A stretch of DNA of 63,420 nucleotides, filler included, from Craspedostauros australis (Eukaryota): assembly GCA_030167865.1 (NCBI GenBank). It is 12 parts of 12 records of this genome, joined end to end, with 100 filler letters (N's around TTAATTAATTAA, not from the genome) between each part and the next. Parts side by side here need not be neighbours in the genome. Positions count along the whole stretch, not along the records: positions 1 to 5,859 come from JALAGF010006683.1; 11 more parts are not named here. One strand, written 5' to 3'. This document shows, in pieces, positions 1-61,585 of the stretch. The position numbers were made by a program, and so were the translations under genes. The notes below the pieces were generated by a model that did no database searches, was not told the origin of the DNA, and worked only from the letters and a program-made list of their open reading frames with translations. How positions within the stretch are numbered: the stretch's first letter is position 1; the number at the start of each line of letters is the position of its first letter.

Positions 1-940
1 TGTGTAGATCGCTGTAAGACGTTTACGTAAGTCCCGAACCAAAAAATGCCAAGAACAGCATCAACCAAAGCCAAACTCTCCGGACTTAGCTCGTGTGAGT
101 GTTCCTGCACTCATCTTTCCATTGTAGCATCATATGGAATTTATATATACAATAATGAAGTTTAGTGGCTGTTCCTCTCTTGCTCAGTGAGCACTGATAT
201 GATCCGTCAAGCACCCCATCATTCACGGACGTTTCTGGCTTGTGTTTGGCAGGTCTTCTTGTCCTGGCTGTTCCAAACAACTGATCCAACTGTCTATGAC
301 GTCACGATGACGCAAGCGTTTAAACAGAATTCCCTGAACTTGCCACCGAAATTGGTGATCCGAGTGGTCAGATATCACTCCGTCTGGCAAAGGAGCACCA
401 AACGCAAGCATACCAACACACCATCGAACCCAAACATAACATATACCATATGGTTGTGACCAACTCGGCGAGAGGATTCTGAAATGAATTTATTGTGCAG
501 ATTGAGCCAAACACCGCTAAGTCCGGAGACTTCAAAGATGGAGAGTCGATTTCCTCGAAAAAAGAGGCAAGATCCTACTGACCTCCTGTAGAATCCTTTG
601 TGTGGCTAACTGTAGGCAATGGAAACCCGGTCCGTCCTTCGTCCGTCGGAAAACCATACCAATGGGTCAACAAACACATCAAGATCGACGAGATGGTAGT
701 AACAACAAGGTAATGTTATCACTTGCCAGGATAGCCCTGGTTGTTAAGCTTACGTAGATATGAAGAGATGTTGGATTGAGTGTCTACAACTTCAAGTCTG
801 AGTTTGGGGAAAACGGGTCCAAAATCTGTAGCCAACTGTAGCCAAAAATCGCCATTTTTTGGTCTGCTTGTTTGAGGCAATAGGTCTATCTGTGTGCAAA
901 GTTTCAGATAGGTCAAAACAGTCATTACAGCTCATACACA
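1..940. mobile_element. Putative non-autonomous DNA element with imperfect terminal inverted repeats
   Basis: Start TGTGTAGATCGCTGTAAGACGTTT resembles the reverse complement of 915-940 (TGTGTATGAGCTGTAATGACTGTTTT). No credible internal ORF. The left flank is outside the window, so no TSD can be checked. Confidence 0.35.
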
Positions 941-1812
941 CTCTTCCTGGAGCAACCATTGGCAAACCAATGGTTGCCAAAAAATCTGGCCTCCCCTCGA
1001 GCCAAAAGACACCGGTCGCAGTCAAGCGAGAGGCATGCGAACAAATCGGAATCCACACATGGAGATCCATCACAAATACGCACATCTCTGGCAGAACACA
1101 ACACAAACAGCAGCACCATCGACATCGACAGATCCGCACACCACAGACCATTGACATCGATTCCATTTGGACCCATCACATAGTCAAAACCATTCATCCT
1201 GGCATAGTATTCTACCGTAGTTCGTAAAAACCGTATTCCATCCATACGAGGAGAGAGGACTCGACCCTTCTCGATACCCATATTTGTACCTCGCACAGTC
1301 ATCGCTGTCCAAGCCTCAACAACAAAGAGCAGATCGTTGCGAGTACGGATTGTCGTCGACGCAGCATGGATCCCTCCTTGTCACAATCTTCCAGCTCATG
1401 GAGCGGCTCGTCTTTGTTCACTTCCGAGGAAATATACATGTGAGTGCACTAATTGTACGGGCGCTTGCTCTTTGCTGGCGTCTACCGAAGTGGATGCGTG
1501 CATATATCCACACATGAAACTTGGTGGCTGCGTGGCTGCGGGGATGGTGGCATCCTCACTTGCATGAACAACTTGGTGTCTACCTTCCCGTCTGTGAATC
1601 AGTACTACCACATGTTCCCCTGCCTCTTGATCGCACGTGTGTGCATTTGTGCTCGTACGTGTGAGCTCGCAGGCTGAGCGCACATGATGCTGCCATCGAC
1701 TTCTACTTGCCATACACTCACGTTGACGCAACCCACCCTCTCTTCCTCTCTCTTCCATCCGACTCTGAATGTATCCGCTGGGGTACATTCTCTACTGTAC
1801 GATGCAATCAAA

Positions 1813-3718
1813 ATGAAACTGGAATGGAAACAGTGATGACATCAATGACACATGGCTTGTGCGATTGTACGGCGCGTGTAATAGGAACGACTTGGCATTG
1901 GTTCAGGTCTTGGTCGAGTCATGCGAGGAGGGCACGCTTTGCGATATTGTGCACGAAGTTGGAGATACACCACTCCATCGTGCTTCCTATCATGGAAACA
2001 TGGCCATTGTGAAGTACTTGGTGGAATCTGATCGAATCAAGGTGGATGTCAACCTCCAGGATCGCTTTGGAAGGACAGCACTCCATCGTGCTTGTGAAGA
2101 TGGACGCAGGGCTATCGTGGAGTACCTGATGGAATCCGACCGTGTTCAAGTGGATTTCAACATTCCAGACAGGGACGGCAATACGCCAATGCACATTGTG
2201 TCCGAGTGCGGATACAGAGATGCCATTCGGTACTTCATGCAATCTGGCCGAAGCGATGTGGATGTCAACGCCCAAAACAACAAAGGGCAGACATTGCTCC
2301 ATCTTGCTTGCAGGAGCGGAAACAGAGATCTTGTTGAGTACTTGATGGAATCTGATCGAATCCACTTCATTATGGAAGATACTGATGGCAACAGCTTACT
2401 CCACCATGCCTGCAAAAAAGGACAAATCGATGTGCTGAAGTACTTGGTGCAATGCCCCCAAGTTGATGCTGCTGCCAACATCAACAAGCAGAACAACAAA
2501 GGCGACACACCTTTGCATGCAGCATGTCAGAAGAAGAGAATCAGCTGCCTTCGATACCTGGTGGAATCAGATGATATCAGTGACAATGTCAATCTCAACA
2601 TTTGCAACAACAATGGTGATACACTTCTCCACCTGGCTTGTTACCCAAACTGGTTTCATTGTCCGGATATGATTGCGTATCTGGTCCATTGTGACAAAAT
2701 TGACGCAGACAACCAGATTCGCACCCAAAACAATGACGGCGACACACCATTGCATCGCCTTTGCTTTTACGGTAACTCTGACTTCTTACCTTGCTTGAAG
2801 TTGCTGCTGGAAGAGTGCCAACCCAACAGTGACAACAACGAAGACAACAGCAACAGCGAGTTGAGTATCGATGAATTATTCAAGATTCAAAACAGGCACG
2901 GGAATACGCCTCTCCATGTTGCATGCGAGCATCAGAAACGCGACGCCATGAATTACCTTCTTCAGTCGTCCAAGACCGACGGCAGCTTCAACATCCAGAA
3001 CAGCCACAGGAATACGCCTCTCCATGTTGCATGCTGGAATCAGGAACGCGACGTCATTGAGTCCATGCTCCAATCGTCGAAGACCAACGGCAGCTTCAAC
3101 ATCCAAAACCATGATGGTGACACACCTGTGCACATCGCCTTCCGCAGAGGATTTTTCATTCCGTTGGATGACACCACCGGACTCACCCACCTCTTCGAGT
3201 TCATCCAACAGCAACTCATCGCCGCCACCAACCTCAGCGATCTCTCCCATCTCAACAATTGTGTGGGAGATACAGTCATCACCAAACGATTGATAGAAGA
3301 GGCCAAACCAATTGCAAACATCCAGAATCGTACTGGCAACACGCTTCTCCATCTTGCATGCATGAACAAGGAGAGTGAAATGTCCACCCTTCGACAGTTG
3401 GTGGGACATGACTCAGTGGATGCAACACTTCAGAATAGTGATGGTGATACTCCATTGCATTGCATCTGCTGTGCCGACACTGGTGACGGAAGCGATACCG
3501 AAAGCGACGCCAACCACCATGATGACTGTCTGGAGAAGATCAACCTGCTGATTGAATCGAGCAACGTGAAGGTGGATGTGAACATGATGAACAATGACGG
3601 AGACACGGTCCTTCACTGTGCGGTCAAGAATGATCTGGTGATGGTGGTCGAGTATCTGATGACGTTGGAAGAGATTGATGTTCATGTGCAGAACAAAGCT
3701 GGCAATACGGCATTCTAA
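1813..3718 (+). pseudogene. Ankyrin-repeat protein, probably disrupted (frameshift after likely ATG, 3' end cut by LTR insertion)
   Basis: More than 12 G-[DN]-T-[PAL]-LH-x-AC ankyrin motifs in the 1859-3718 frame. ATG at 1813 is one base out of frame with NWNGNSDD. The last repeat stops at AGNTAF*, where the putative LTR begins. Confidence 0.8.
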
Positions 3719-4394
3719 TGTGCACAGGAGGCAGGTCATGATGCGAAGGTCTCGGCCCGCTTGGATCGAGACCAGTAATAGAGCTAAACTAGCAGTTAGG
3801 CTAAGGAAGGATTTCCTGGAACACATGACTCGTTTTCCCACGAATCGATCTGAACCACGTTTCGGACATAACCATGTTTGGAGCAGGCACAAGTCTTCGA
3901 AGAAACTCTTTGAAATCCAGGACTCATGGAAAAAGGGTCCCAATGACTGTGTCATCGGAACCCCTCCCCACCGAAAACTTGATGCCGATACAAGACTGCT
4001 GGATCCACGGTACAGTTCCACGTGGGAATACATGCAAGATGACCTTCGCCCAGCTTCCAACTTGATGGAGGGAAACTTTCCCCTGGTACTAGGGCTACGC
4101 AAACCCTACGCCCTTTTCTGACAGCAACCCAACAAAAGGGCCCCCTCCTGTGGTACTTGGGCTACGCAAACCCTACAACCCTTTTCCAGGGCAACCCACA
4201 CAGGGTGTCACACGAACAAGAATAATTGCACTAATCTCATAATCCGCACGTTTCTTCACCATCTACCAGTATTCTAANNNNNNNNNNNNNNNNNNNNNNN
4301 NNNNNNNNNNNNNNNNNNNNNNNNNNNNNNNNNNNNNNNNNNNNNNNNNNNNNNNNNNNNNNNAGACAACAGCCATTACGTTTGGGCTCTATTA
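3716..4394 (+). mobile_element. Putative 5' LTR of a retrotransposon (contains N gap)
   Basis: Begins where the ankyrin repeat is truncated and ends immediately before a tRNA-complementary PBS and a long ORF. Contains a duplicated TGGTACTWGGGCTACGCAAACCCTAC motif at about 4084 and 4151. Confidence 0.6.
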
Positions 4395-4408
4395 GATTAA
4401 CAGTCGCA
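4395..4408 (+). promoter_or_regulatory. Primer-binding site complementary to tRNA-Asn(GUU) anticodon arm
   Basis: GATTAACAGTCGCA. Its reverse complement TGCGA-CTGTTAA-TC reads as a 5' stem strand, a 7-nt loop with anticodon GTT and the first two pairing bases. Confidence 0.75.
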
Positions 4409-4439
4409 AAAGATTGTCAAGCTCTTAGACCTCTGCAAG

Positions 4440-5859
4440 ATGACCGTCACCCAACGCCTTCAGGTCTCCAACCGGCCACCTCCCAAGAGGAGCCCAGGAG
4501 ACAGGACCCTCGCCTTCGAGACCGTCCCCGCGGACCCGAAGGACCCAAGCCTCTCTGCCATCCTTGATGGCACGCCAGGCTACCCAACGGCCGGCCCATC
4601 TTTGCTCTCCTTCGAGGAGATCGGAGTCAACTTCATCGAGGTCACCTTCCGACACCCCATCATCGTGGATGCATGGAACCGAAAGGANNNNNNNNNNNNN
4701 NNNNNNNNNNNNNNNNNNNNNNNNNNNNNNNNNNNNNGCGGACCTGAAGGACCCAAGCCTCTCTGCCATCCTTGATGGCACGCCAGGCTACCCAACGGCC
4801 GGGCCATCTTCGCTCTCCTTCGAGGAGATTGGAGTCAACTTCATCGAGGTCACCTTCCGACACCCCATCATCGTGGATGCATGGAACCGAAAGGAAAGAA
4901 CCAACGAAACCGAAGTCATGCGCCACGTCCATAAGACTACCTGGGACGCGTTCACGGAACTCAAACAGGAGTTTCGAATCAGCATCGAAACCGCCATGAT
5001 CCTTGATCTCTTCCCAGCCAAGACCCTCGCAGAAGAGAAGACCATCTCCCAACTGCTGATCACCATCCATGAAGAAGCCACCGACATGAACCCGGCATTA
5101 ATCATGTTCAACCTCAAGCACCCGGACGACGTTGCAAGGAACTACAAGACAGGACTCCTCATCTACCACATCGGAGAATGGGTCAGATCCATCGAAGTTG
5201 AAGAGGAATCCACTCTTGAATCCACCCTTGATGCGATGTTCGCCGACACGGACACCACTGCCAAAGCCATGGCAGACTTCTGCCGTTCCGAACGATGCGG
5301 CAAACGCTACCACAACCAAGCTTGGTTGAATGCCATTGGGGAACACAAGAAAGCACTCTCCAACGCATCCGCGACCAGCATCTCATCTGGGTCAGAAGCA
5401 TCTACCCATAGAACCGGACGCGACAACGACAGCCACCNNNNNNNNNNNNNNNNNNNNNNNNNNNNNNNNNNNGGTGGGAACACCCCGCACCGTACACCAC
5501 CCAACTTCCAGAACGAAACCCAACTCTCCAGCATCGCCAAGCAAGGATCACAGAACACGTCACCAGTGATCATCGACGACCGTGGGACCACCCCGCCCAA
5601 CGAAGGCACAGAACCAGGCACCAACTACGACCAACACCCTGGTAACGACGATACCGTAGACGTATCCGACAACCGCGGCCCCACAGGACGGAACCGACTC
5701 TTCCCCAATGTAGACCCCGCGACGATCGGCGACTACAACCGCAACCCAACCGGCGCCAAGGTAGTAACCTTCGCCCCCGAAACAACCGCCAAAGGTCCAG
5801 GAGGGACCAACGCACCCCGGATGAACTACCCAGAGAACGACGGGAATCATCCACCCCAC
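4440..5859 (+). CDS. Putative Gag-like ORF of the LTR element (partial, gapped)
   Basis: ATG 32 nt after the PBS opens a long frame with a helical N-terminal part and a Pro/Asn/Gly-rich tail. The Gag assignment is positional; no diagnostic motif is seen. Confidence 0.55.
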
Positions 5860-5903
5860 NNNNNNNNNNNNNNNNNNNNNNNNNNNNNNNNNNNNNNNNN
5901 NNN

Positions 5904-5915
5904 TTAATTAATTAA
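5904..5915. other. Artificial scaffold-joining spacer TTAATTAATTAA within Ns (also 11075, 14450, 21931, 25262, 35409, 46279, 49013, 54061, 58770, 61530)
   Basis: The identical 12-mer, giving stops in all six frames, is always flanked by about 44 Ns on each side. Confidence 0.97.
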
Positions 5916-5959
5916 NNNNNNNNNNNNNNNNNNNNNNNNNNNNNNNNNNNNNNNNNNNN

Positions 5960-11011: not shown

Positions 11012-11160
11012 TGGTGGCAGATGTGCTGTTNNNNNNNNNNNNNNNNNNNNNNNNNNNNNNNNNNNNNNNNNNNNTTAATTAATTAANNNNNNNNNNNNNN
11101 NNNNNNNNNNNNNNNNNNNNNNNNNNNNNNGACGAACATCATTCAAGAGCAGCAGGCTGA

Positions 11161-14100
11161 ATGAGCGAGGAAGAGGAATTGAGAGACATCCCTCTGTCCA
11201 ACCTGACTATCAAGCCAGAAGAAGGTGCGAGTGAGACTCCACCACGAGAAGAGAAGGAAGTAGCAGCGGCTACTGTCCTATCAGGCGAAGACGCAAGCGC
11301 GATCGACGAGACCGAAGAGGAACGGTCTGCAAGGCAACATCGCGAGAAGGAGAGGATCCTCAAGGCGATCAAGCAAGAGGAGACTGGTGTGACGNNNNNN
11401 NNNNNNNNNNNNNNNNNNNNNNNNNNNNNNNNNNNNNNNNNNNNNNNNNNNNNNNNNNNNNNNNNNNNNNNNNNNNNNNNNNNNNNNNNNNNNNNNNNNN
11501 NNNNNNNNNNNNNNNNNNNGGAAATCAAGGGCGCGAGCGCACCAACAACGAAACAACGAATCAACATGGCGACATCAGCCAACATGAACAAGCGACGTAT
11601 CAAGGCGCCGATGTTCAGTGGTGAACAGGAAGACTACAGCGCATGGGAGTCCCAAGCGAAAGCATACGCTCGTGCACAGAAGACGAGAGACGTGATGTTG
11701 GGCAAAACCAAAGTGCCAACAGTGAGCGAGATCGCGGCAGCCGCCAGTGAAGCCAAGGAAGCGATGGAGGAGATCTACGAGCTGGGATGCGACTGCTTCA
11801 GCGATCTGATCCTCATGATGGATGCAGAGAAAGGAAAGGGCAAGCAGGCCATCCAGTACATCAACCAATGCATCTCCGACGATTATCCCGAAGGAGATCC
11901 ACACGCAGCGTGGAACGTTCTCGCAGAGAAGTTTCGACCATCCGACGCTGCGACGAAAATCAAACTCAAGCGCCAATTCAACAACGAAAAGATGAAGAGA
12001 GACTCGGACCCCGACATCTACATCACGCGACTCGAGAGTCTACGATCGCGTCTCCACGATGTCAAGTACGAGATCACAGACGAAGAGATGATCATGCAAA
12101 TCCTCAGCACGGTGAGCAATGAATACAAAACTCACATCGTGAACTTCCAACACCAACTCACGTTCAATCCGGAACTGATTACCATCAACACGATCAGAGG
12201 AGTACTTCGCACTGCATACGCCACTCATCAAGGAGGCAAGGCGTACGTCGACGACTTCCAAGACAGTAACACGAAGAGCAACGACACTGGCTTCACGAGC
12301 ACCGGTAAATTCAAGGGTACTTGTCACAACTGTGGTGTGTATGGTCACAGATCCGCCGATTGCCCAGAACGCAAGAAATCGAACAACAAGAAAAACAACA
12401 ACAACAAGATGAACGGAAAGCGCAACAACTACCGCAACAAGGGAAGCGGCTTCAACGGCAAGTGCAACTATTGCGGCATCTTCGGACATCGCGAGGCAGA
12501 GTGCCGAAAGAAGAAGTTCAACGAAAAGAAGAAGGCCGACGAGCAGGTCAACGCAGCAACGGAAGGACACGACAAGAGCGGGCACGAGATGGTACTCTCG
12601 GCAAAGGACATGCCGCTCTGCATGTTGGTGTCCAACGACTACATCGAAGACTCCTTCTTCGATAACTTTGAGTGCGTCGGAAGTGACGACGAAGTGCAGG
12701 ACGATGAGATCGTCCCGGAGTGGCTCAGCGAGGAGCCAATCATCCACGAGGTGGATCCAAGACGCGAAGTGAGCTACGAATGCTGCTTCAACGCGCACGA
12801 CCTGATCGGTCCATACAGCGACGCAGCCGAGATGGACAGCGAGGCCAACGATAGCGACATCGAAGAGGCAATGAGCGAAGACAACGAAGACGCCGACGAG
12901 AACGGCTCAGACGAAGACGCCGACGAGGACGGNNNNNNNNNNNNNNNNNNNNNNNNNNNNNNNNNNNNNNNNNNNNNNNNNNCGAGGCGCCGCCTCCCGC
13001 AGCAATGCGAAACGAGAGAACGGGCATCTTCGATGAAGAGGACAGCGACGAAGCTGAGGACCGTCCAAGCGATGCATTCAATCCCTACGAAGCTGTCGTC
13101 TACCCAATTCGAATCCAATTCCCACTGGAGCCGAATCCCAGAAGAGTCGACGACATCTACCGACTCCAGACCTTCCCAGAACCAACGGTCACTGCAAAAC
13201 GAATGCAGAAGCAGCTCATCTACGACGCGGTCCTAACAGCTGCATTACCGATGTTCCCAGGGTTCGTGAACGAACCATTGCGATACATTTGGGTGAGCAT
13301 GGTAAGCACCATCTTATCCGATAACTTCAAATCGATTGAAGAGATCCTCGCAAACGCAGCCATCCTCAACCGACTACTGCAAGCAAACGAAGAGGAGGAA
13401 CTCTCCAAACTGGACTTGCACTACGTGCTCGGAGGGTGCATGCAGGTGCTCCTGCGCGAGCGACCACGCGTCACACCGTATGACACGGTCACCGGAGTTC
13501 ATTGAAACAGCACAGTACCAGCGCACTTCGCTGAACTACCAAGCGATGACGAAACGGATGAGAACCACAATCCATACAACAAAGATGGAGTGCATGAAGA
13601 TGAAGAGGCAGACAGCCTCATGGATGAGATGGCCACAGCAGCCGTGGAGCAGCTCCACAAGCTAAGCACTCGATACAAGGACAAGGTCAACAAGGACACC
13701 TGGCTCGCCGACAGCGGAGCTTCGTGTCACATCGTCAATTCGGACGCCGCTCTCTTCAACGTGCGGCACATCAAGTCATTCGTCCAAGTGGGAGACAGCA
13801 CAAAGCTGGACTCTCCCAAAATGGGATCCATTCGCTTGAAAGTCAAGCAACGAGACAACACTGGCCACATCATCCGGCTCAACGATGTGAAGTACACACC
13901 GAAAATGGTGGTGAACCTTTTCTCCACAAACAAGGCTCTGTACAACGGTTACCAGCTTGGTAACAACGGCATTCTAATGGACATCATCAACGGATCCAGA
14001 ACGAAGATCGTATTCGACCAAGTCTTCCCCACAGCCAACGGATTCATCACAGGAGTGCAGATGCATCCCATCATGCCAACGAACGACGACAAGGCTTGCA

Positions 14101-14405
14101 CAGCCATCATCAAGAATCCATCCAAGGAGATCAGCGCGGTGAACTTGCATCGAATGCTCGGCCACGCGCCACTCGAAACCATGAAGCGGACAGCCGCCCA
14201 ATACGGATGGAAGATTATCGGCGAGATGCCGGTATGTCGCGACTGCGTGATCGCAAATGCGAGAGTAAAGAACATTCCGAAGGCAACGATTCCAAGAGCA
14301 ACTCGCCGCGGCGAACGTCTGTTCATTGACATTAGTTACACTAAACACATAAGCTTCGGAGATAAACGCTACTGGACCCTGATCGTGGACGACTGCACGG
14401 ATCAC
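11161..14405 (+). mobile_element. Ty1/copia gag-pol fragment, family A (Gag, two CCHC knuckles, extra module, protease, integrase start)
   Basis: FSGEQEDYSAW; CHNCGVYGHRSADC and CNYCGIFGHREAEC; WLADSGASCH; HRMLGH...CRDC; RLFIDI...LIVDD. In-frame TGA at 13503 where sister copies have Arg. Confidence 0.95.
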
Positions 14406-14505
14406 NNNNNNNNNNNNNNNNNNNNNNNNNNNNNNNNNNNNNNNNNNNNTTAATTAATTAANNNNNNNNNNNNNNNNNNNNNNNNNNNNNNNNNNNNNNN
14501 NNNNN

Positions 14506-14675
14506 GCTGTGCGAAATGGGAATACCAGTGGACGGCCCAAGCTGGCTCTTTGGTGACAACCAGAGCGTAGTCACATCCTCCACCATCCCTACCAGTGTAC
14601 TATCCAAGAGACACAACGCACTGGCCTACCACCGAGTCCGATCGGCCATCGCCGCTGGGACGATGTACTTCATCA
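14506..14675 (+). mobile_element. Ty1/copia RNase H C-terminal fragment
   Basis: MGIPVDGPSWLFGDNQSVV...LSKRHNALAYHRVR. Confidence 0.9.
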
Positions 14676-15956
14676 ANNNNNNNNNNNNNNNNNNNNNNNN
14701 NNNNNNNNNNNNNNNNNNNNNNNNNNNNNNNNNNNNNNNNNNNNNNNNNNNNNNNNNNNNNNNNNNNNNNNNNNNNNNNNNNNNNNNNNNNNNNNNNNNN
14801 NNNNNNNNNNNNNNNNNNNNNNNNNNNNNNNNNNNNNNNNNNNNNNNNNNNNNNNNNNNNNNNNNNNNNNNNNNNNNNNNNGTGCTGAAACGATGCTTTA
14901 CTCCGACACATGATTTTCGGCATAAGAGGGACACACTAGAGAGAACATCAGAGATTCGGTCTGGCCATTGCCCGGCAAACATGTGATGTCCAATCCGACC
15001 TGATATGACCCACTTGAGTGAACGAAGGTGCAGTCGCGCCTAGTCGTGACTCAGATTTTCGTATAATTTAAAATGACATATAAAAACAAAATCTAGACCA
15101 CCGTGCGATCTTATCCATATAAAAATGGCCTTCATCCGACCTTTGCTTCAAAAGTTATACGCCCCTATCTACCACGCACAACGCCGTGTTATTTTTCCTC
15201 CTCAAATTTCGGAAATGGGTCTTGGTTGTTCGTGACTTANTATTTTCGATGGTGTCTTTTCGGTTAATTACGGTTATATTTTGGCGANATGCNCCTCGTC
15301 AGCNTTTCTTNCNATCGCAACGTCACTATCTTGATGTTTTCATGATGGGCATTTCATTGCGNTATTCTCTGGTTTCTGCGCTTGGTTGTCTTGATTCTCC
15401 TGCAGCTTCTTGTGCATGCGAATTGACTTGTTCGTCACATGCTACGTGGTCCTCGTCGTAATCCCGTTTGTCAACAACCCTCCATTGGTATCATCCATGC
15501 CATCGACAAAAAAATAATCAGGGCGATCTATCCAATTCAACTATCATCTGCGTTTTTCAACTTGTTCATGAAGATCTACATCAACCATTCCATTTTTGAC
15601 GACGGCTACCCCAGACTGCACACAAAGGTACTACTCCTATTTCATGACGGACATGGCATTATCCGCCATGCATTCGATGGCCACAATGATGCTGACAGCG
15701 ACGGTGGTGTTGATTGGGGCAGCATTGACATAGACAGCCATGATGATGCCCAGGATAGCATTGTCAGTGGCTATGGTCGCCGCCATGGCAACAAAGGTGG
15801 TGGTGCTACCCACAGCGATGCTGTTGTCAAGGACGATGCTGGTGATGGCAACAAAGATGAGGATGGGGAAGCAACCTGAATGATTCCGTCACAGAAGGCA
15901 ATGGTGATGGCAATGAAGGTGGTGTTGGCAAGAGAAGCAATGGTGATGATGGCAGG

Positions 15957-16118
15957 TGACAGCTTTCTCTGTACTTTTTACCTCTTTACAAATCATATGA
16001 GTCAAAATACTGGTCGGAGATTGTCCTCGAACAACTCACAATAAAAAAACAAGAGCTCCGACCAGGGCACGCAACAACGGGCCAATACGTCTCCAGGAGT
16101 TACTTGTGCACTTTGACA
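15957..16118 (+). repeat. 5' LTR (162 bp)
   Basis: Direct repeat of 21631-21793 with TG...CA ends. Confidence 0.95.
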
Positions 16119-16132
16119 GATTAAGAGTCATG
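16119..16132 (+). promoter_or_regulatory. Primer-binding site complementary to tRNA-Lys(CUU) anticodon arm
   Basis: GATTAAGAGTCATG directly abuts the LTR. Its reverse complement CATGA-CTCTTAA-TC is an anticodon arm with CTT. Confidence 0.8.
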
Positions 16133-19100
16133 GTTTACCAACAAGAATATCACCTTTGCAACATCAACCACCATGGCAAGACCAATCAACAACCAAGCTT
16201 TGACAGCCATAATCAAGGAACTTGCTGACCTCGATGACAAAGAAATGGAGTTCATCAACAAGCAACTCAGAAGGATCGAACGCGCCATCAAGAGTCCAGA
16301 CAAAAACACCATCCAAACGCTGGCTCTCTCACCAACACTCACCTCGATCAACATTGAGAACATCCTTCACATCTTCGCTTTTGTGAAAGAACGGCAAATC
16401 GACCAAGCAACCGATTGGGCGGCCATCAACAAGTTCACTACAACGACCGGGTATGAGGTACCAACCATCAAGACTCCTGTCGCCAGCAAGGCAACCCAAA
16501 TGCGATTGGAACTCGTGACGAAGGAAGCCGCCAATCGTGAACTCGCCAAGGCAACGAGCTGTGAGGTTGTGGTACACTCACCAAGGCGCCCATTGGAAGT
16601 ACACCGATCGCCATCAATGCCAACCAGATGGAAGTATGACAAGTCGCCCTGCTAGAGGCGGAGCCATTCAGCGGACTCAACATCGAATGGTACCAGTGGA
16701 AGACCAACTTCCACCGCCAGCTGGTCACAACCAGATACGCAGACTATATGCAAAAGACACGCCAGGCCCACTCCTGCAAGAACGTCGACACCCAGTTCTA
16801 CGCAGTGCTCAACTTGAAAACGTGCAAAGGACACACTAACTACATGGTCCTCTCGGAAAGAGACAGCGGTCACGCAGCCTTCCAGGCCCTCATCCGCACA
16901 TACGAATCCACTGAGAACAGGGCCGACATTGTGGCAACAGAGGAAGGCAAACTGTCCAAACTCGTCTACAATGGATCTGGACCGTTCAGCACGTTCGTCA
17001 ATGACTTCTCCATATCTGTTCAGCCAATAGAAGACAACAGAAAGGCAATGCGCGACAAGCAGAAGATTGCAAGAGTCTTCTGCAACATTCATGATGAGCG
17101 ATTCACCAGTACGGTCTCTCGCCTCCAAGAGACGGACGAGTCCTTCAATTGGGTCTGCAAAACTCTCATGAAGCACAACAAGGTCCTCTCCAACGCGGAG
17201 ATCGACAGATCTCCACGGCGCAATCAACGCGCGCACCAGAAGGACGGNNNNNNNNNNNNNNNNNNNNNNNNNNNNNNNNNNNNNNNNNNNNNNNNNNNNN
17301 NNNNNNNNNNNNNNNNNNNNNNNNNNNNNNNNNNNNNNNNNNNNNNNNNNNNNNNNNNNNNNNNNNNNNNNNNNNNNNNNNNNNNNNNNNNNNNNNNNNN
17401 NNNNNNNNNNNNNNNNNNNNNNNNNNNNNNNNNNNNNNNNNNNNNNNNNNNNNNNNNNNNNNNNNNNNNNNNNNNNNNNNNNNNNNNNNNNNNNNNNNNN
17501 GGCAACAAGACCGATCGAACCAAGAAGTACAGACCATGTGACAACAGCTCCTGAAAACCAACAACAGGCGCTTCGCGCCGGCAGTTGGAGGTCATCACAT
17601 GCATCAAGGACCAAGACAGTGTGGACTTGATGCACAAAGCCGCGGAGAGCGGGCCAGGGCATACAACCCCGGATACGCTACGAGAGTCGCGTCCAAGAAG
17701 CGCTGACTCGCATATAGAGCACACAATTCGACGGGCAAGAGTAACAAATAGTAGGCATGGCTATATCATTCTAGACTCAGGCACGGACGGTGACATTGTT
17801 CATGAGTCTGGATGGGTGGTAGCCCAAAATCACCAGCAGCAGTTCCACCCCGAGGGGCGACAGTGGACTTGCAGATCGAGATGTTTCCAATGGTTGACGT
17901 GGTGGCAGCGTACAAGCCGCCAGAAGGTGGAGTGATCTTCATCAAGGCACATTATGTGGCTCTCGACAAGCATCCATGGCAGATGGAGTCGCTGTTCAAT
18001 ACACACCACATGCGCACGTCCGACATCAGCGTCTGCGATTGGCTTCGACAACACGATGGGCAGCAACGGATAACGTCTGGCGACATCAGCATCCCGCTGG
18101 CCAATCACGACAGCAATACCCTGTGCATCCCAATTCGTAAACCGACAGCTTGCGAGCTAACTCAAACTGAGAATATTACTATATGCGACAGACACAGACG
18201 CCTTCGGAGATCCCACACCAGTGGTGACTTCAACGAGGTCTTCCGGCATCTCCCACAACAGGTGGTCGAGAAAACGAAAGCAGCATCGACCCAACTGGCC
18301 GATACTCCCATCGATGCGGAGTCAAGACTCATCCCAAGGCAGTACTGTGCGCAGCAAGCGGGCGCGCTACAGCCACACCAAATCAAGGGAAGAGTGGAAA
18401 CTGATCCATTCTTCTCCATGGTCCCATCGATTTGACACCACAAGTGCTTCCAGCTCTTTGCACACAGCGAATCTAAATTCATCTGGGCAAAGCCGCTCTG
18501 ACAAGAGGCGATGGCGCCAGGGGCGCTCACCGATTTCATTGTGCAGGTCAGGGCACCTGACCTACTCTTCTTGGACTACTCACAGGTCCAAGCCATCAAA
18601 GAATGGAAGGCTGTGACAATGTGGTACATGATCGAGCACTCCTTCACTGCTCCCATGAATCAGAATCAGAACCGAGCGGAGCGGCCGATCGGCGACATCA
18701 AGCGACATGCATACAAATTGCTTTGGGCGGAGTCCATGCCACTCACCTTCTGGTGCTACGCGGTACAACATGCCATCGATGTATGGAACTACATGGCAAA
18801 GGAGAGCATCCAACGGAAGAATTCCATCGAACTGCTCCACAGGAACACTCTGGACATCTTCATGTTCAGGTTCACGTTCTTTCAACAGGTCTGGTATTTC
18901 GAGCCAATGACAAAGTTTCCACATCACCCATTCAAACCAGGATACTTCTTGGGAATCGCATGGGACCATGGAGACCCTTTCACATACAACATATGGTTGC
19001 CACGGGGCGACGACGAAACCAATGGCACTGCCCTGGTACAGAACATTGTGGAACCACGAATCGTGGAAGACGCAAGCGCTCCGCAAATCACCGACGAGGA

Positions 19101-21630
19101 AGTTCAGCGCATCGCACGCCTCGATCTCATACACACTACTACCAGAGGCAACTTGGGGCAACGAGCACGCGCCAAGACGATGCCAGCACAGCTCGCCCGA
19201 CAGGTCCGTGAGGCCATCGACGCGATTCCCGTGCGGTCGGTGGCGGCTGCTCGCATTCCTGAGGAGGGACCACTGGAGGTCAGGGGCGTCGTGGTCAACG
19301 AAAATGCTATTCCGCATGACAACTGATGGTTCGGTCAGCAGAACGTCATCATTGATGACAACGACAACCACAACAGCAGGCCTACGAGCATGATATCCTA
19401 TGGCAAAGGGGAAGACAAGCTCTCAACTGCGGACATCTCGAGAGAATCTGATGACTATGAAGCAGTGAGGATTCCAGATCCTCCCCAGCAGCGGATTCAG
19501 GGGCGTATCGACACTCTGGCTGAGCGCGAGCATGATTAGATGTTCCAAAATCAGATCGCAAAAGACAATACGAGCGAACCAGAAATTACATCCATAGCAG
19601 GCCACTCATTCCGAGACTGACATCTCCATCTCAATGTGAAATGGGACAACAATGAAACTCAATAGTTCCGACACAATATCCTGAGGGCAGACCATCCCGA
19701 GCTCGTGGCGCGATACATCATCGCCAACGAGCCAAAACGGCACGACAGGCACAATCGACAGTCAACAACAATACTAAAACGGGCAAAGCACGCTGTTCGT
19801 GCGATACACAGACGCATGCGACGAATCGAGCGCACGCACATCTTCACAGTTGACAACAATGACAGCATTGCCATCCTGAGGCGCATACGACCAGGAAAGA
19901 AGAAGCCGAACAAGGACTTATTCGCTACAGTATTCCAATACAGTGTAGAAGTGCCATGCAACATGCGACACGCACTCCAACGTGACGAAGCCAATGGCAA
20001 CACATTGTGGAAGCATGCAGCAAAGAAAGAGATCGACGCTCTGATCGACCTCAATTGCTTTGAATTCCATCCATCCACTCACCGACCTTCATCGTACTAC
20101 CAGAGCACCAAGCTCTGGCTCATCTTCGCTGGGAAACAGGATCTGTGGCGCAAGGGGTGGCTGGTAGCCGGTGGTCACCTCATCGAACTCGCTGACAATA
20201 TCAGAGTATACTCATCCACGATCAATTCAACCAGTGCACGGATACTCAATGTCATCGCGGACGCAAACAAGCTGAAGCAACTCTGCGACAACATGGGGAA
20301 TGCAGTTGTCAATGCCTACACCAACGAGAAGATGTACGCGAGGGCAGGAAAAGAGTTCGATCACAGAGAGGGTCAGACAATCGTACTCAGGCAGGCGTTG
20401 TATGGACTCCGATCGAGCACGCAAAGATTCCATGCTCACTTCGCAAATACACTCTCATCCATGGGGTTCTCTCCATCACGGCATGACCAGGACGTGTGGA
20501 TCAAGTGGAGGGACAACACTGGGTATGACTATATATGCATGCATGTCGATGACTTCAAGATTGTGGCAAATGAACCGGACCAATACATGAAGGCCATCCA
20601 GCAAGTCTACACCATCAAAGACATAGGACCACCCAAATACTATCTGGGCAATGACGATTCCAGGAATGCGAAAGACAAATGGAGCGTTGGATGTGACAAA
20701 TACATCGCAAACGCGATGGATAAAGTCAAGAAGCAGCATGCAACACTCCATGACCAGCATGTGTCCATGTGGAACAAGGACCATCCGGAAACAGATGACT
20801 CCGAACTACTCACACCAAACGAACACCAACAGTTCCAGCAGCTCATCGGCATGCTGAACTGGGTCGTTCAACTTGGACGTTTCAATGTCGCCTTTGCAAC
20901 TTCTTCACTCTCTTAATTCACTGCATCATCTCGGAAAGGGCATCTAGCAAGAGCACTCAAGGTATGGGGCTATCTCAAGAGCAAGTCCACACTCAGAACG
21001 CAAATTGACTCCAGACCCATGATATTCGACAACTTCAACTCGACGCCGTCCAACCCAGAATTGGTGGTGCAAATGAAGGAAGAATACCCTGAGGCACAGG
21101 AGGACGTCGACGACCGGTCACCGAAGCCAATCTATCCAGAGCCGCCGATGTATGCATTCGTCGATGCTGACCATGCGCACGATCTTGTCACATGCCAATC
21201 AAACACCGGGATCCTCCTTTTCCTCGGCAGGACGCCTGTGTACTTCTCGAGCAAGCGGCAGACATCAGTCACAACGTCTACATACGGAGTAGAATTCAAC
21301 GCGATGCAATCAGTGACGGAAGAAATCATTGCACTCCGATATGCACTCCGATCACCGAGAGTCCGCGTCCAATCACCAACGGTCACATTCTGCGACAACG
21401 ATGTGGTGATCTTGAAAACGACGATCGCAGACAACCTATTGCAAAAGAAGCATGTGGCAATATCATTTCACCGAGTCCGTGAGGCTGTGGGAGCTGGGAC
21501 ACTGGTTCCAGTCCACGTCCCATCGGCTCAGAACTTCGCTGACATCCTCACCAAGGCATTGGTGAGGCCAACACTAACACTTCTTGCCACAACCCTGTTC
21601 TACGGGGGTCCACCTTGAGATCAAGGGGCG

Positions 21631-21793
21631 TGACAGCTTTCTCTGTACCTTTTACCTCTCTACGAATCATATTAGTCAAAATACTGGTTGGGGGATTGTC
21701 TTCGGACAACTCACAATAAAAGAACAAGAGCTCCAATCAGGGCACACAACAACGGGCAAATACGTCTTCAGTAGATACTTGTGCACTTTGACA
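21631..21793 (+). repeat. 3' LTR (163 bp)
   Basis: Direct repeat of the 5' LTR with about 16 substitutions and 1 indel by manual count. Confidence 0.95.
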
Positions 21794-21986
21794 GCAGGGA
21801 TCGCAATGGTGACAAGGCAACAGGTGATGGCGACGGCGATGGAAGGGATGGCGATCATCTTGAAAGCCCTGCGATTTGGAGACATCNNNNNNNNNNNNNN
21901 NNNNNNNNNNNNNNNNNNNNNNNNNNNNNNTTAATTAATTAANNNNNNNNNNNNNNNNNNNNNNNNNNNNNNNNNNNNNNNNNNNN

Positions 21987-24900
21987 TTGGACCAAGCCAC
22001 TCCGACGGGAGGCGATGGCGCCAGGGGCGCTGACCGACTTCATCCTCAACGTTGGAGCACCAGACCTACTTATTTCCGACAATTCACAAGTGCAATCGGG
22101 CAAGGCATGGAAGGCGGTAACATCCAAGCACATGATCAAGCATTCGTTCACAACGCCAATGAACCAGAATCAGAACCGAGCGGAACGCGCTATCGGAGAC
22201 ATCAAGCGGCATGCGTATCAACTCATTTGGGCGGCATCTGCGCCACTCGAATTCTGGTGCTACGCTGTTCAGCACGCTGTCGACGTTTGGAACTTCACGG
22301 CCAAGGCAAGCATCCAATGGAAGACGCCGATCGAACTTGCTCGGGGCAACACACCTGACATCTCTATGTTTCGTTTCACTTTCTTCCAGCCGGTGTGGTT
22401 CTTCGAACCGATGACGAAGTTCCCGGCTCATCCCTTCAAGCCAGGATATTTCCTGGGAATCGCATGGGATCATGGCGATCCATTTACATACCACATCTGG
22501 TCGCCGAAGGCCGACGACATCAAGAAAGGCACAGCACTCGTCCGGAATATCGTGAAACCGCGAATTTTGGAGAATGCAGAGGTGCCACGGATCACTGACG
22601 AGGAAATACAACGGATCGCTCGACTCGACCTCATACACTACAAGACCAGGGGCGCTTCGGGGGACAGGGCGCGCACCAAGACGATGCCAGCTGAGCTCGC
22701 TCGACAGGTCCGCGAGGCCATCGACGCGATTGCTGTGCGGTCAGGGGCGGCGGCTTGCATTCCGGAACCTGGACCCGAACGGGTCAGGGGCGTCGAGGTC
22801 GACGCAAATACTACTCCATCGGAGGATCAATGGTTTGGGCGGCCGAACATCGTACCAGACGACGATGGCATGCGCGGACAGAACGCCGCTGGCATGATAT
22901 CGGATGACGACGACGACGGCGACGACATTCCAGACGATGACATCTCAGTGGAGTCCGACGGCTCGGCGGCGGAACCTATGCCGGATCCACCGGAGCAGCG
23001 GGCTCAGGGGCGTCAAAGCTCTCTTGCAGAGCGCGAACACGATGAAATGTTCCAGAATCAGGTCGACAAGGTCGATCCAAATGAACCAGACATCACCAGC
23101 ATCATCGGACACAGCTTCCGAGACGGACATCTACACCTCCACGCGAGGTGGGCAAGCGATGACACACAATGGTTTCGATATGATATCCTACGGGCGGATC
23201 ATCCAGAGCTCGTGGCTCGCTACATTGTCGCGAACAAGCCTACTCGACACGGACGGCACAATCGTCAATCGCAAACGATGTTGAAATGGGCAACCCATGC
23301 ACTACGAGCGATCAGACGGCGCATCCAACGAATAGAGCGCACGCATCAATTCTCGATCGACGGCAACGACAACGTGACAATCATACGACGGGTCCGGCCA
23401 GGAAAGAAGAAGCAGAAGAAAGACTTCTTCGCAACTGTATTTCAATACGGAGTCGAGGTTCCACGCAACATGAAACACGCTTTGCAACTCGATCAGGCCA
23501 ACAACAACGACATGTGGAAGGCAGCAGCCAAGAAGGAGATCGATGCACTCATCGACCTCGACTGCTTCGAATTCCATCCGTCAACACATCGACCATCATC
23601 CGAATACCAGAGCACAAAGCTCAGACTCATCTTCGCAGTCAAGCAGGACCTGAGACGCAAGGCACGACTCGTGGCGGGAGGACACCTCATCGAGCTGGCA
23701 GATAACATNCGTGTCTACTCATCGACAGTCAAGTCGACCAGCGTGAGAATACTCGACGTCATNGCCGACGCGAACAAACTGGACCAGCTCTGCGGCGATG
23801 TCGGCAACGCATTCGTCAACGCATATACCAACGAGAAGATATACGCAACAGCAGGCAAGGAATTCGATCACCGGGAAGGCCAGACAATCGTGCTCAAGAA
23901 AGCATTGTACGGGCTCAGATCCAGCGCACAACGATTCCACGCACACTTTGCGAATACGCTATCCTCGATGGGATTCAAGCCATCACGACATGACCAGGAC
24001 GTCTGGATCAGACTTCGTGACGAGTCCGGATATGACTACATCTGCACACATGTGGACGACTTCAAGATCGTGGCAAAGGACCCACAGAAATATATGAAGT
24101 CCATNNNNNNNNNNNNNNNNNNNNNNNNNATCGGACCTCCCAAGTACTACCTTGGGAACGACTATTCCAGGAATGCCAAGGGCAAATGGAGCGTTGGATG
24201 TGACAAGTACATCGCCAACGCACTGGACAAAGTCGAGCGCCAGCACGGGCAGCTACACAACCAGCATGTTCCTATGCGGAACAAGGATCATCCCGAAACG
24301 GACGATACCGAACTACTAACACCTGACGAGCAACAGCAGTTCCAGCAGCTCATTGGCATGCTGAACTGGGTCGTTCAGCTCGGACGTTTCGACGTCGCAT
24401 TTGCAACTTCTTCACTTTCACGTTTCACTGCATCACCANNNNNNNNNNNNNNNNNNNNNNNNNNNNNNNNNNNNNNNNNNNNNNNNNNGGCAAGGAATTC
24501 GATCACCGGGAAGGCCAGACAATTGTGCTCAAGAAAGCATTGTACGGGCTCAGATCCAGTGCACAACGATTCCACGCACACTTTGCGAACACACTATCCT
24601 CGATGGGATTCAAGCCATCACGACATGACCAGGACGTCTGGATCAGACTTCGCGACGAGTCCGGATATGACTACATCTGCACACATGTGGACGACTTCAA
24701 GATCGTGGCAAAGGACCCACAGAAATATATGAAGTCCATNNNNNNNNNNNNNNNNNNNNNNNNNNNNNNNNNNNNNNNNNNNNNNNNNNNNNNNNNNNNN
24801 NNNNNNNNNNNNNNNNNNNNNNNNNNNNNNNNNNNNNNNNNNNNNNNNNNNNNNNNNCTGGACAAAGTCGAGCGCCAACACGGGCAGCTACACAACCAGC

Positions 24901-25217
24901 ACGTTCCTATGCGGAACAAGGATCATCCAGAGACGGACGATACCGAACTACTAACACCTGACGAGCAACAGCAGTTCCAGCAGCTCATCGGCATGCTGAA
25001 CTGGGTCGTTCAGCTCGGACGTTTCGACGTCGCATTTGCAACTTCTTCACTTTCACGTTTCACTGCATCACCACGCAAGGGACACCTCGTGCGAGCGCTC
25101 AAGATATGGGGCTATCTCAAGCACAAGGCCACTCTCCGCACACAGATCGACTCCAAGCCAATGATATTCGACAACTTCCCATCGACTCCATCCAATCCGA
25201 AATTGGTGGCGCAAATG
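21987..25217 (+). mobile_element. Ty1/copia pol fragment, better-preserved relative of family B (integrase, chromo-like module, RT)
   Basis: Open frame with ISDNS, NQNRAER, KARLVAGGH, GDVGNAFV, KKALYGLRSS and YICTHVDDF. Colinear with about 18480-21075. Part of RT is repeated across an N gap. Confidence 0.95.
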
Positions 25218-26899
25218 NNNNNNNNNNNNNNNNNNNNNNNNNNNNNNNNNNNNNNNNNNNNTTAATTAATTAANNNNNNNNNNNNNNNNNNNNNNNNNNN
25301 NNNNNNNNNNNNNNNNNCCAAAAGAGAGAGCACGGGGCAACGAGCCCGAAATCGCTGGTGGACCAGGGAACGTTGCCAGGAGGTATTCACATGCGCAAAG
25401 CAAAGATCGCACCTGGCTGTCCCCGAAAATCTGCCTCAAAGCAAGCTCTGAAGCAGATTAGATGTGGACGCCAACAAACGTTGAATGGCGTCTTCAAGCG
25501 ACTTGTCCCAACCCAACGATGTACTTTCGCAGATGTGCCGCGCACTCGCTCTCGCGAGCCTTGCGGAATCAGACGATGGGGTCGAACAGCAGTACAAGCT
25601 ATTGAACTAGCGCACAAGGCGGCGTGAACGACTACCGAATTGCAGAGCGATGCCGCGCCATTTCATCGTTGATTGACACGTCGCGCGGCTGCTTTGTGCG
25701 TGGAGATGTCTTGATCCCACTACCCAAAGCAGGCCCTCCGGTGCCATCGCTGCTGATGCTGTCGCTGTCGCAGCCGATGATGTGTTCTGCGCAACCCCAA
25801 CAAGCAGGTTGCATACGCGGGATCGCGTTGTGGTTGTGATCAGCGTCCACTTCGTCAAGGACCAGTTCGTAAGATTAGGCAGGGTGATCGTGGTGATAGC
25901 AGTGATAGTTCTTCAGCGAACAAGTTGTTGGTAGCGGGCGGCAGGGTGACAGATGTGTCTTGCCATTCCTTTCGTGGGCGCGAAACAAGGAAATGAGCTT
26001 CGATTTTATTGGAATGACACCGCACGATCTAACTTCCAATGCCAACTAGTCGTCAACTCCCCATGTTCCTGAATACTTGGATGGCCCTGGAGCACTTGTA
26101 TTCGTGGAGTGCGCGCACGTACTACTTGCATTGAAGCGGATAGTTGACAACAGGAAGCACTCGCCCAACGCACAAGAACAGTGTGCACCTGTGGCGCCTC
26201 CAAAGGCTGATCATCCTTGGTTGATGTTGTATCAGTGTTGCCGGAGCTGTCCATGACACAACGTTCTGGATCGGCTGTCGCCTCCGGTCTGTGGAGATTG
26301 TGCAAGCGAAGAACGAGCGGAGCACATGTGTGGGAGGAGCATTTATACCATCCATCACCACAGCCCCTTCATCTCGTCACTTGTGGCTCGCATGCATGCC
26401 CCTTTGGCTTCTTCTCTATCCCAAAGGTGTGGTTTGTGCCAGGGAGGTGGAGGCTCCGCCATTGTTCCATCGTTCCCTGGCGAATCGTGTAGTTGTGGTT
26501 GGCAGATTGCAACACCCATGGTGACAGAAACACTTGTGGCGATGTCGACATTTTTGTCCCAACACGACCAATGATGGATCCCAATCTGTCCGTGGTGTTT
26601 CTGTGGTGGCCATAATGTCCTTTCGTGACCGCGTGTCCCACAAATCGGACCATTTTTGCGGCAGGCTCGTTCTCTCATTGTACGATTAAATAAATACGCC
26701 ACTTACGCTTCCTCGTTGTACTTATATCAAAATCATTTATTCTCTATCATATTTAGTTCTATCTGAAAATCGATCAGGACAGGCCACTGTGGCGACAGTG
26801 GGTCTTTGGAGTCCCATGCATCATTTCTGTTGCTTCCGTCAGGCTGTCTGCGGTGCGCCGCTGGGAGTTGCCTTCATTCCTTTCGAGGCCGTGAGCAAC

Positions 26900-29224: not shown

Positions 29225-30000
29225 GATTACCTTGTGATATTATAGGAGGAAAGCTGTTGTTAGCTGTGTGTGTGTGATGCAATCCAGCACTGGTTGTGGC
29301 GATTTGCTTTGGTTGGTGTGGGTGTGGGTGTTTGTCTTGTGTTGGTGATGATTTTATGAGAGGAGGGTGTTGCGAAATGTCGTGAAATGTTGTGAAATGG
29401 TTTGGAATGTTGGTGATGATTGTTCTTGTTGGCTCGTGTTTGAGCCACACGATTTTCGTGTTGAAACTGGTGGCGATACGTTGTCTGTGTTTTTACCTTG
29501 TATGGCCCCATTCAGCGAAGTCGAGTATTATTCTGCGGATTTGAGATACTGAAACGTGATATTTTTAGACATCAGTTTTTCGTGTTGTCCATTAGGGTTA
29601 GATATATTTAGCTAGCTTCTACGACACAAATACATGGCTGGCTTGTCCTCACCGTGGACGAGAATGGTGACATCATTGACGGTCGATGCCAGACTGAAAT
29701 GGTATCCAGCGGCCTCGATGGTGATGTTGTGAAAGGTTCGGTGTCACGTTCATTCCTTGCGTTGTCGATGGTTTGGCTCTGGTGTGCGTTACCTCCTTTG
29801 TGCGTGGAATGTCAAACAGCACGGTGTTGGTGGCGGCGTCCCTACACGTCCACTTCCACGTTCACGGCAATAGCAACACTTGCGAATATGACACAGCATA
29901 ATATTATATCATATAGTANNNNNNNNNNNNNNNNNNNNNNNNNNNNNNNNNNNNNNNNNNNNNNNNNNNNNNNNNNNNNNNNNNNNNNNNNNNNNNCAAA

Positions 30001-34925: not shown

Positions 34926-35514
34926 AGTGCAATGAAGCACAGTGACTTATCCTTTGGTATGTAAAATGTATTTTATTGAACACTTAGGTTTGTTTGTAAA
35001 TACAAAGTCCTACTGAACCTGCTTTGCTCCCATGGACATGGGATGCCATGGCCATCTACTGAGCCGTTGGCATGGTGTGAAAAGAGACTGGTGGCGGCAG
35101 TGGTTTTACTTGTTGTTTCTGGTGTTGTGATGTGAGTGCTTGCAGGTTCACTGACACTGAAACAAGAAGTTGAGAGGAGAGCANATGAACAACAGCCAGA
35201 AGCCAACAATGACTGTTCGCGACGACCAGCAGAGAGGAGGTCCAAGCACACAGGCAGGGAATAGACCTGAAGCAAGGACCAGGCTGTACAATTGAGTGGG
35301 TACATGGAGGGAAGGCAATGTGTGCTGAATGGGACATGGACGAAGCTCAACCTGTTGGGCCATGNNNNNNNNNNNNNNNNNNNNNNNNNNNNNNNNNNNN
35401 NNNNNNNNTTAATTAATTAANNNNNNNNNNNNNNNNNNNNNNNNNNNNNNNNNNNNNNNNNNNNACACCCAATCAACATCACTCCACCACGCCCGGGCAG
35501 TTCACCACAGCACA

Positions 35515-37945: not shown

Positions 37946-38328
37946 GTTGGATACTGTGTGTGTGTAATCAATGAAGACGGTGTCATCGAGGACAAGCAGA
38001 GTGTTAATGTAGAGTGTTGATACAGAGTGGCTCGAATGCTCGATGTGCCAGCGCTTCACCCTGTTGCTGCGCATGCACCTACAATCACGAATGCACTCGT
38101 CCGAATGGTACAATAACATCATGACGACGATGGGCGGCATACAGGAGGAAGCATAACATGGTAAGAACAGAAGCGAAGAGGCAATGGCAGTTTATGCTGT
38201 GAGAAATGTTTGTGGCTATATTGGCGCAATCGGAGGTGTTGCTGTGGGCGTGCAATCGCTCCTTGACGATGCAGCAATTCAACGGCGATGCCACGGAAAA
38301 TAGAAAGACCGTACTGCTTCGCGGCACC

Positions 38329-48968: not shown

Positions 48969-49084
48969 NNNNNNNNNNNNNNNNNNNNNNNNNNNNNNNN
49001 NNNNNNNNNNNNTTAATTAATTAANNNNNNNNNNNNNNNNNNNNNNNNNNNNNNNNNNNNNNNNNNNNGACTACGATGAGATAC

Positions 49085-58723: not shown

Positions 58724-58825
58724 GANNNNNNNNNNNNNNNNNNNNNNNNNNNNNNNNNNNNNNNNNNNNTTAATTAATTAANNNNNNNNNNNNNNNNNNN
58801 NNNNNNNNNNNNNNNNNNNNNNNNN

Positions 58826-61485: not shown

Positions 61486-61585
61486 NNNNNNNNNNNNNNN
61501 NNNNNNNNNNNNNNNNNNNNNNNNNNNNNTTAATTAATTAANNNNNNNNNNNNNNNNNNNNNNNNNNNNNNNNNNNNNNNNNNNN

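Follow-up and report, generated by a model that had tools for sequence, protein, structure and literature searches.

A 14-mer at positions 4395–4408 of the DNA analysed here (GATTAACAGTCGCA, + strand) is identical, as a complement, to part of the anticodon arm of real tRNA-Asn(GUU) genes and has a close parallel at a verified long terminal repeat (LTR) junction elsewhere in the same DNA. We consider it probable, at roughly 65% and judging from sequence, that this motif belongs to an LTR element, assembled only in part, and constitutes its half-tRNA-Asn(GUU) primer site. Specifically, it would constitute the minus-strand primer-binding site (PBS) of a retrotransposon in a diatom-like genome, most likely a Copia-like one.

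According to this reading, most of the 5′ LTR, with its last base at 4394, would fall within an N gap (4278–4363); the PBS at 4395 would open the internal region, and a Gag-like open reading frame (ORF) would follow, beginning at 4440 and still open where the contig stops (5859). The primer would be a 5′ fragment of tRNA-Asn(GUU), and not the 3′ CCA end of the tRNA. This fragment would have its 3′ end at position 40, the second base on the 3′ side of the anticodon stem, and would be base-paired with the element RNA across positions 27–40, which implies that the nuclear tRNA-Asn(GUU) genes of the host would carry TGCGACTGTTAATC.

Both the mechanism and a tRNA-Asn primer are already in print, as sequence inference. 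Among diatom-like genomes, the site at 4395 may be the first such case to be noted, because a non-exhaustive search of the literature returned no description of PBS types for diatom Copia elements.

Sequence Context and Assembly

The window, i.e., the whole stretch of DNA analysed (63,420 bases), is a chain of twelve short contigs, the joints of which are eleven N44-TTAATTAATTAA-N44 linkers. These linkers give stops in all six frames, and features are not readable across the joints; many more N gaps are found inside the contigs. The linkers are located as follows:

5860–5959, 11031–11130, 14406–14505, 21887–21986, 25218–25317, 35365–35464
46235–46334, 48969–49068, 54017–54116, 58726–58825, 61486–61585

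Duplicates of 97–100% identity flank N gaps at 4530–4687/4738–4895, 52826–53125/53559–53858, and 56049–56334/56490–56775, and are probably unresolved assembly overlaps rather than biological tandem repeats.

The 14-mer is situated in the first contig (1–5859), which also contains an intron-less ankyrin-repeat gene (1817–3718) and a 720-nt spacer that includes an 86-N gap, after which comes the motif. While positions 1–4277 are free of gaps, N gaps begin just at the motif region, and one of the overlap duplicates (4530–4687/4738–4895, 97%) follows close downstream. Gaps and duplicate near 4395 are compatible with a multi-copy repeat, at which they may hint. The features on which the proposed reading draws are:

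4278..4363, unstranded: assembly gap of 86 N, which would hide most of any short LTR
4364..4394, + strand: 31 known upstream bases, putative 3′ end (U5) of the 5′ LTR, with the end TATTA, not CA
4395..4408, + strand: candidate primer-binding site GATTAACAGTCGCA, complementary to tRNA-Asn(GUU) positions 27–40; the primer 3′ end would be position 40
4440..5859, + strand: ORF, candidate Gag-like, family unassigned, starting 31 nt after the motif and reaching the contig end

Other parts of the window contain further mobile elements and genes. Two piggyBac-type transposase ORFs are found on one contig (5912–8311 and 9511–10110, both on the − strand; DDE_Tnp_1_7, E = 1.5e-38 and 3.5e-13), with a mutual DNA identity of ~68–75%. 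A second Copia family, present at 11161–14453 and 61586–63420, encodes Gag (Retrotran_gag_2 plus zf-CCHC) and Pol_BBD; its copies are 77–91% identical, and their contigs start too near gag to show a PBS. At 26903–29239 (− strand), there is an intron-less carotenoid-oxygenase gene of the RPE65 family, the best named relatives of which are diatom proteins with 36–40% identity; the designation of the host as diatom-like is founded on this gene.

The 14-mer and Its Match to tRNA-Asn(GUU)

The motif that the first-pass annotation had placed at 4395–4408 is present there on the + strand; the window contains no second occurrence, even when two mismatches are permitted. Its reverse complement, TGCGA-CTGTTAA-TC, does possess the anticodon-arm shape described earlier, consisting of five stem bases, the loop CTGTTAA, and two closing bases. 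Arm architecture per se is, however, at chance level; since 916 of the 117,810 14-mers of the window (0.78%) satisfy it, arm shape alone is uninformative, and the evidential weight is carried by the identity with real tRNA-Asn arms.

For this comparison, the stem of the 14-mer was completed to the 17-mer arm TGCGACTGTTAATCGCA, which was then scanned against metagenome contigs, yielding at least 119 matches in at least 117 loci. Among the matches listed, 104 of 119 are inside tRNA-Asn(gtt) genes, as called by ARAGORN, and the other 15 are either within ~25 nt of a locus end (eight) or internal with no tRNA call (seven). The CCA is not encoded in 81 of the 104 listed genes, and TTTT is found within 15 nt downstream in 31 of these 81; a T-run just downstream is a trait of eukaryotic nuclear tRNA genes. 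The arm is found in eukaryote-type tRNA-Asn genes from metagenomes, none of them assignable to diatoms. All 14 bases of the motif are complementary to the anticodon arm—and not to the 3′ CCA end—as is characteristic of half-tRNA priming, and complementarity ends exactly at positions 27 and 40 versus all 69 distinct tRNA-Asn sequences fetched. The earlier assignment to the tRNA-Asn(GUU) anticodon arm is thereby corroborated. As to a bipartite PBS, a search of 4364–4687 for a second stretch complementary to tRNA-Asn yielded scattered 8–9-mers at most.

The only other CTGTTAA in the window, at 42824–42837 (+ strand; ACTAA-CTGTTAA-TT, with two closing pairs), has 9 nt in common with the 14-mer and no LTR context, and was dismissed as a chance occurrence.

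Because real tRNA-Asn genes contain this exact 14-base stretch, the motif might also be what is left, on the minus strand, of such a gene or of a SINE derived from a tRNA. This origin is extremely improbable, because ARAGORN calls no tRNA in the window and, when the flanks were compared with the 69 tRNA-Asn sequences, they matched neither the D-arm nor the T-arm nor the 3′ strand of the anticodon stem in any of them; nearby, other complementary words do not exceed 8–9 nt and are scattered.

Alternatively, the match may have arisen by chance, no retrotransposon being involved: the ORF at 4440, downstream of the ankyrin gene, would be a lineage-specific orphan gene of the host, and the 14-mer would belong to its promoter or 5′ UTR. 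The high frequency of arm architecture among the 14-mers and the fact that the whole 63-kb window was searched post hoc are points in its favour, but an exact canonical tRNA arm in register is rare: by our own arithmetic, ~4e-4 occurrences are expected per specific 14-mer in the window, and ~0.02 over some 50 tRNA arms. The onset of the assembly gaps at the motif likewise speaks against coincidence. On the evidence given here and in the following sections, we regard this explanation as unlikely.

The Putative LTR in Front of the Motif

The 31 bases before the motif terminate in ...CTCTATTA, without the usual CA. Concerning the TG...CA termini of an LTR, the upstream end thus reads TATTA, and the LTR start would be hidden by the gap at 4278–4363. 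The TA end at 4394 need not be disqualifying, because the LTR of the Puccinia element Helenus-2_PGr ends in ...caata directly before its PBS, as given in PMC10886601. In an end-anchored comparison, the 31 upstream bases agree at 16 positions with the terminal 31 nt (16088–16118) of the verified LTR described in the next section, and 70 of the 57,884 31-mers of the window reach an equally good match; this likeness weakly suggests an LTR.

Self-BLAST revealed no second copy of 3600–4700 anywhere in the window, and the two direct repeats expected of an LTR element were not found for 4395; the contig ends at 5859, and the 3′ LTR could lie beyond. Neither a target-site duplication nor a polypurine tract was detected for this element within the window, the only LTR pair of which (15956–16119/21630–21794) is on another contig. 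The missing LTR pair is consistent with a chance match of the 14-mer.

In the first-pass annotation, it had been stated that no TGG follows the LTR. TGG is indeed absent between 4395 and the ATG at 4440, with none within 45 nt, but the LTR itself was assumed, its second copy not being found in the window.

A possible 5′ tip of the LTR was considered as well:

3776..3784, + strand: TAATAGAGC, exact inverted complement of 4386–4394, possible 5′ tip of a 619-bp LTR (3776–4394)

Of 15 pairs in 1.2 kb, three are exact 9-nt inverted pairs, this one included; its interpretation as LTR tips is speculative, not being above chance, and was rejected.

A Complete Copia-Type Element with a Primer-Binding Site in the Same Register

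A complete, old LTR retrotransposon is present at 15952–21798 (duplications included) of the contig 14506–21886. Its features are:

15957..16118, + strand: 5′ LTR, 162 bp, TG...CA, with the duplication GCAGG at 15952–15956
16119..16133, + strand: PBS GATTAAGAGTCATGG, adjoining the 5′ LTR; complement of the tRNA-Lys(CUU) anticodon arm, in the same register as at 4395
19666..21618, + strand: Copia-type reverse transcriptase (RT; RVT_2, E = 1.8e-9) and RNase H-like C-terminus ...FADILTKAL..., with the stop codon at 21616–21618
21631..21793, + strand: 3′ LTR, 163 bp, with the purine run AAGGGG (21623–21628) before it and GCAGG (21794–21798) after it

The two LTRs are identical at 148 of 165 aligned positions (~90%), and the reading frames of the element are broken. 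Neither Pfam (E ≤ 1) nor a tblastn search with the window's other Copia pol as query revealed an integrase in 15957–21793; the label "Copia-type" is based on RVT_2, the 5-bp duplication, and motifs which, by recognition, we take to be RNase H-like. Concerning the PBS, 95 of 124 matches of ATGACTCTTAATCAT, the core of the Lys arm, in prokaryote genomes are inside tRNA-Lys(ctt) genes. A TGG occurs 12 nt after the 5′ LTR and is not adjacent to it, whereas a CCA-end PBS would adjoin the LTR.

Two further pol sequences are connected with this element. A relative of its pol (18484–21075) is found on a third contig, at 21988–25217, with 73–81% DNA identity and an intact 929-codon ORF. At the very start of the contig 14506–21886, positions 14507–14677 presumably encode, by motif recognition, the C-terminus of a different Copia-like pol (...GDNQS...KRHNALAYHRVR...), suggesting nested or adjacent elements.

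The motifs at 4395 and 16119 have 10 of their first 11 bases in common, GATTAA[C/G]AGTC. On both strands of the window, the pattern GATTAA.AGTC occurs at these two sites only, versus an expectation of ~0.11 (117,810/4^10, own arithmetic). The two sites agree in the register of the PBS, in strand relative to the ORF, and approximately in the distance to the ATG of the long same-strand ORF, which is located 31 nt past the motif at 4395 and 39 nt past the PBS at 16119. They differ in that the site at 16119 is complementary to tRNA-Lys(CUU) and belongs to an element with a proven LTR pair, a target-site duplication, and an RT. The single recurrence of the 10-base pattern, at a verified LTR junction, argues against a chance match, as do the fitting strand and distance to the ORF start, and the Copia-type element favours the interpretation of 4395 as a PBS. 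The initial proposal of a PBS for a 3′-truncated tRNA-Asn(GUU) appears plausible and is strengthened by this verified element and by a parallel in Puccinia (see below), although the LTR that it presupposed was an assumption.

The same resemblance might be explained by decay, the 14-mer being a dead or derived relative of the tRNA-Lys(CUU)-type PBS at 16119 with an incidental likeness to Asn, i.e., a relic that is no longer Asn-primed. The bases common to both motifs would agree with such a descent, as would the non-canonical LTR end at 4394 and the old age of the sole verified element of the window, with its diverged LTRs and broken frames. Yet all of the differing bases (positions 7, 12, 13, and 14) yield exactly the widespread tRNA-Asn arm, which random decay would seldom produce, and the ORF at 4440 has remained open, with a GC3 of coding type; we therefore judge decay to be very unlikely.

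The Downstream ORF

Returning to the putative half-tRNA-Asn primer site, the ORF that starts at 4440 stays open over 470 codons or more, with changes of frame at the N gaps 4688–4737 and 5438–5472. Its GC3 of 0.67–0.77 is like that of known genes of the window, a coding-type pattern. The full coding capacity of an LTR retrotransposon, i.e., Gag plus Pol (PR, INT, RT, RH), was not found at 4395; because the ORF is assembled over 1.4 kb only, pol would sit past the contig end.

Database searches assigned no family to this ORF. Pfam detected no gag, protease, integrase, or RT domain in the contig 1–5859, and, at E ≤ 10, no family for the ORF pieces of 4440–5859, with two meaningless weak matches. 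The residues encoded by 4738–5436 gave 0 matches at E ≤ 0.001 among 1.84 billion representatives, and tblastn of the other Copia proteins of the window against the contig 1–5859 returned nothing at E < 1; there is also no similarity between the ORF and the ORF or proteins of the verified element 15957–21793. A contig with no retroelement domain and an ORF with no relatives are what would be expected of an orphan host gene next to a chance match.

The AlphaFold2 model of the ORF, computed with no alignment, has a pLDDT of 34.5 and is unusable. In a protein atlas, the nearest cluster to the ORF is an unnamed diatom hypothetical (0.94), and the named neighbours include zf-CCHC, TYA, and Retrotran_gag_2 clusters at 0.83–0.88, i.e., below the lead threshold of 0.9, so that these Gag-like neighbours are a mere lead to the family of the ORF. 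A candidate paralogue at 37925–38179 (weak tblastn match, E = 0.035) was rejected, since an unrelated ORF is located there.

Implications for Diatom Retrotransposons

No new mechanism is revealed by the site at 4395. If it is real, tRNA-Asn(GUU) and, at 16119, tRNA-Lys(CUU) would join the primers of retrotransposons from diatom-like algae. The site would support the notion of a wide distribution of anticodon-arm priming within the Copia superfamily and of easy primer switching between similar tRNA arms.

As a tentative extension, which we hold to be possible rather than probable, the Copia-like retrotransposons of diatoms (stramenopiles) might collectively use 5′ tRNA fragments, cleaved behind position 40, as their primers, having switched between the near-identical arms of Lys-CUU (16119) and Asn-GUU (4395) by few PBS substitutions. 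Were this true, half-tRNA priming, so far described from animals, fungi, and plants, would gain a fourth major lineage, an ancestral role of the mechanism in Copia would be suggested, and the elements would be connected to the unexplained D-loop/anticodon tRNA fragments in diatom small-RNA libraries. The small RNAs of P. tricornutum include D-loop/anticodon fragments of 9 tRNAs (PMC4247016); the one supplement file of that study searched as text contains no Asn entry. The text of Maumus 2009 (PMC2806351) comprises no PBS analysis.

If the site is real, a rule for annotation would be that LTR finders seeking CCA-end PBSs only will miss or misjudge elements in genomes of this kind.

Comparison with Known Half-tRNA Priming Systems

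Priming by tRNA fragments has been recognised in different hosts. Candida Tca2 uses a tRNA-Arg fragment as primer, and for the tRNA-iMet half priming of copia and Ty5, the primary papers are reportedly Kikuchi 1986 and Ke 1999.

A tRNA-iMet half serves as primer in Drosophila copia and yeast Ty5 (PMC5371799), while among plant elements, 1/2 tRNA-Met is listed for Osser, Bryco, and Gymco-II, and 1/2 tRNA-Ile for Bianca (PMC6317226). In all of these elements, the primer tRNA is cut in the anticodon arm, as proposed for 4395, and the PBS abuts the 5′ LTR (PMC5371799, PMC6317226, PMC10886601). They differ from the present case in the tRNA species used; moreover, priming of copia and Ty5 has been shown by experiment, whereas the element at 4395 is known from its sequence alone.

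For Lys, Ile, Tyr, and iMet, PBSs directed against the anticodon arm have already been published (PMC5445492, PMC6317226). The fungal Copia clade FunCo1 possesses the PBS ATTAAGAGTCT, which, like that at 4395, is directed against the internal region (anticodon arm) of an ANN-decoding tRNA; in contrast to 4395, this tRNA is tRNA-Lys and not tRNA-Asn, and the host is fungal (PMC5445492).

The closest counterpart is provided by the Helenus elements of rust fungi. According to Kojima 2024, most fungal Helenus TRIMs and their Copia partners take the tRNA anticodon loop as primer, and tRNA-Asn-GTT is inferred for the rust-fungus elements (PMC10886601), so that the novelty suggested in the first-pass annotation, to which no described tRNA-Asn primer for this mechanism was known, has to be abandoned. 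In section 3.6 of that paper, one paragraph names tRNA-Asp and another tRNA-Asn-GTT; Asn seems to be meant, judging by the consensus sequences, which carry the GTT complement. In these consensus sequences (Data S1), the iMet-type PBS GGTTATGAGCC occurs 50 times and starts two bases past the loop, in the register seen at 4395. ATTAACAGTCGA occurs 8 times, and the three contexts examined are the first bases of internal regions: those of Puccinia Helenus-3_PGr, Helenus-2B_PSt, and LTR-2_PSt open with c-GATTAACAGTCGA or ca-ATTAACAGTCGA, Helenus-3_PGr-I and Helenus-2B_PSt-I starting with cGATTAACAGTCGA, and LTR-2_PSt-I with caATTAACAGTCGA (PMC10886601). A search for GATTAACAGTCGCA itself as a text string in the literature returned no paper.

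As far as the consensus sequences in that source go, Puccinia Helenus and the element at 4395 differ in host (rust fungus versus diatom-like alga), in the distal stem (GA versus GCA here), and in that Helenus has defined LTRs and many copies, whereas one copy with a putative LTR is available at 4395. In both, the PBS complements the anticodon arm and not the CCA end, and the internal region of Helenus starts with (c)GATTAACAGTCG, i.e., with 12 bases identical to those at 4395, and with the same primer end at position 40.
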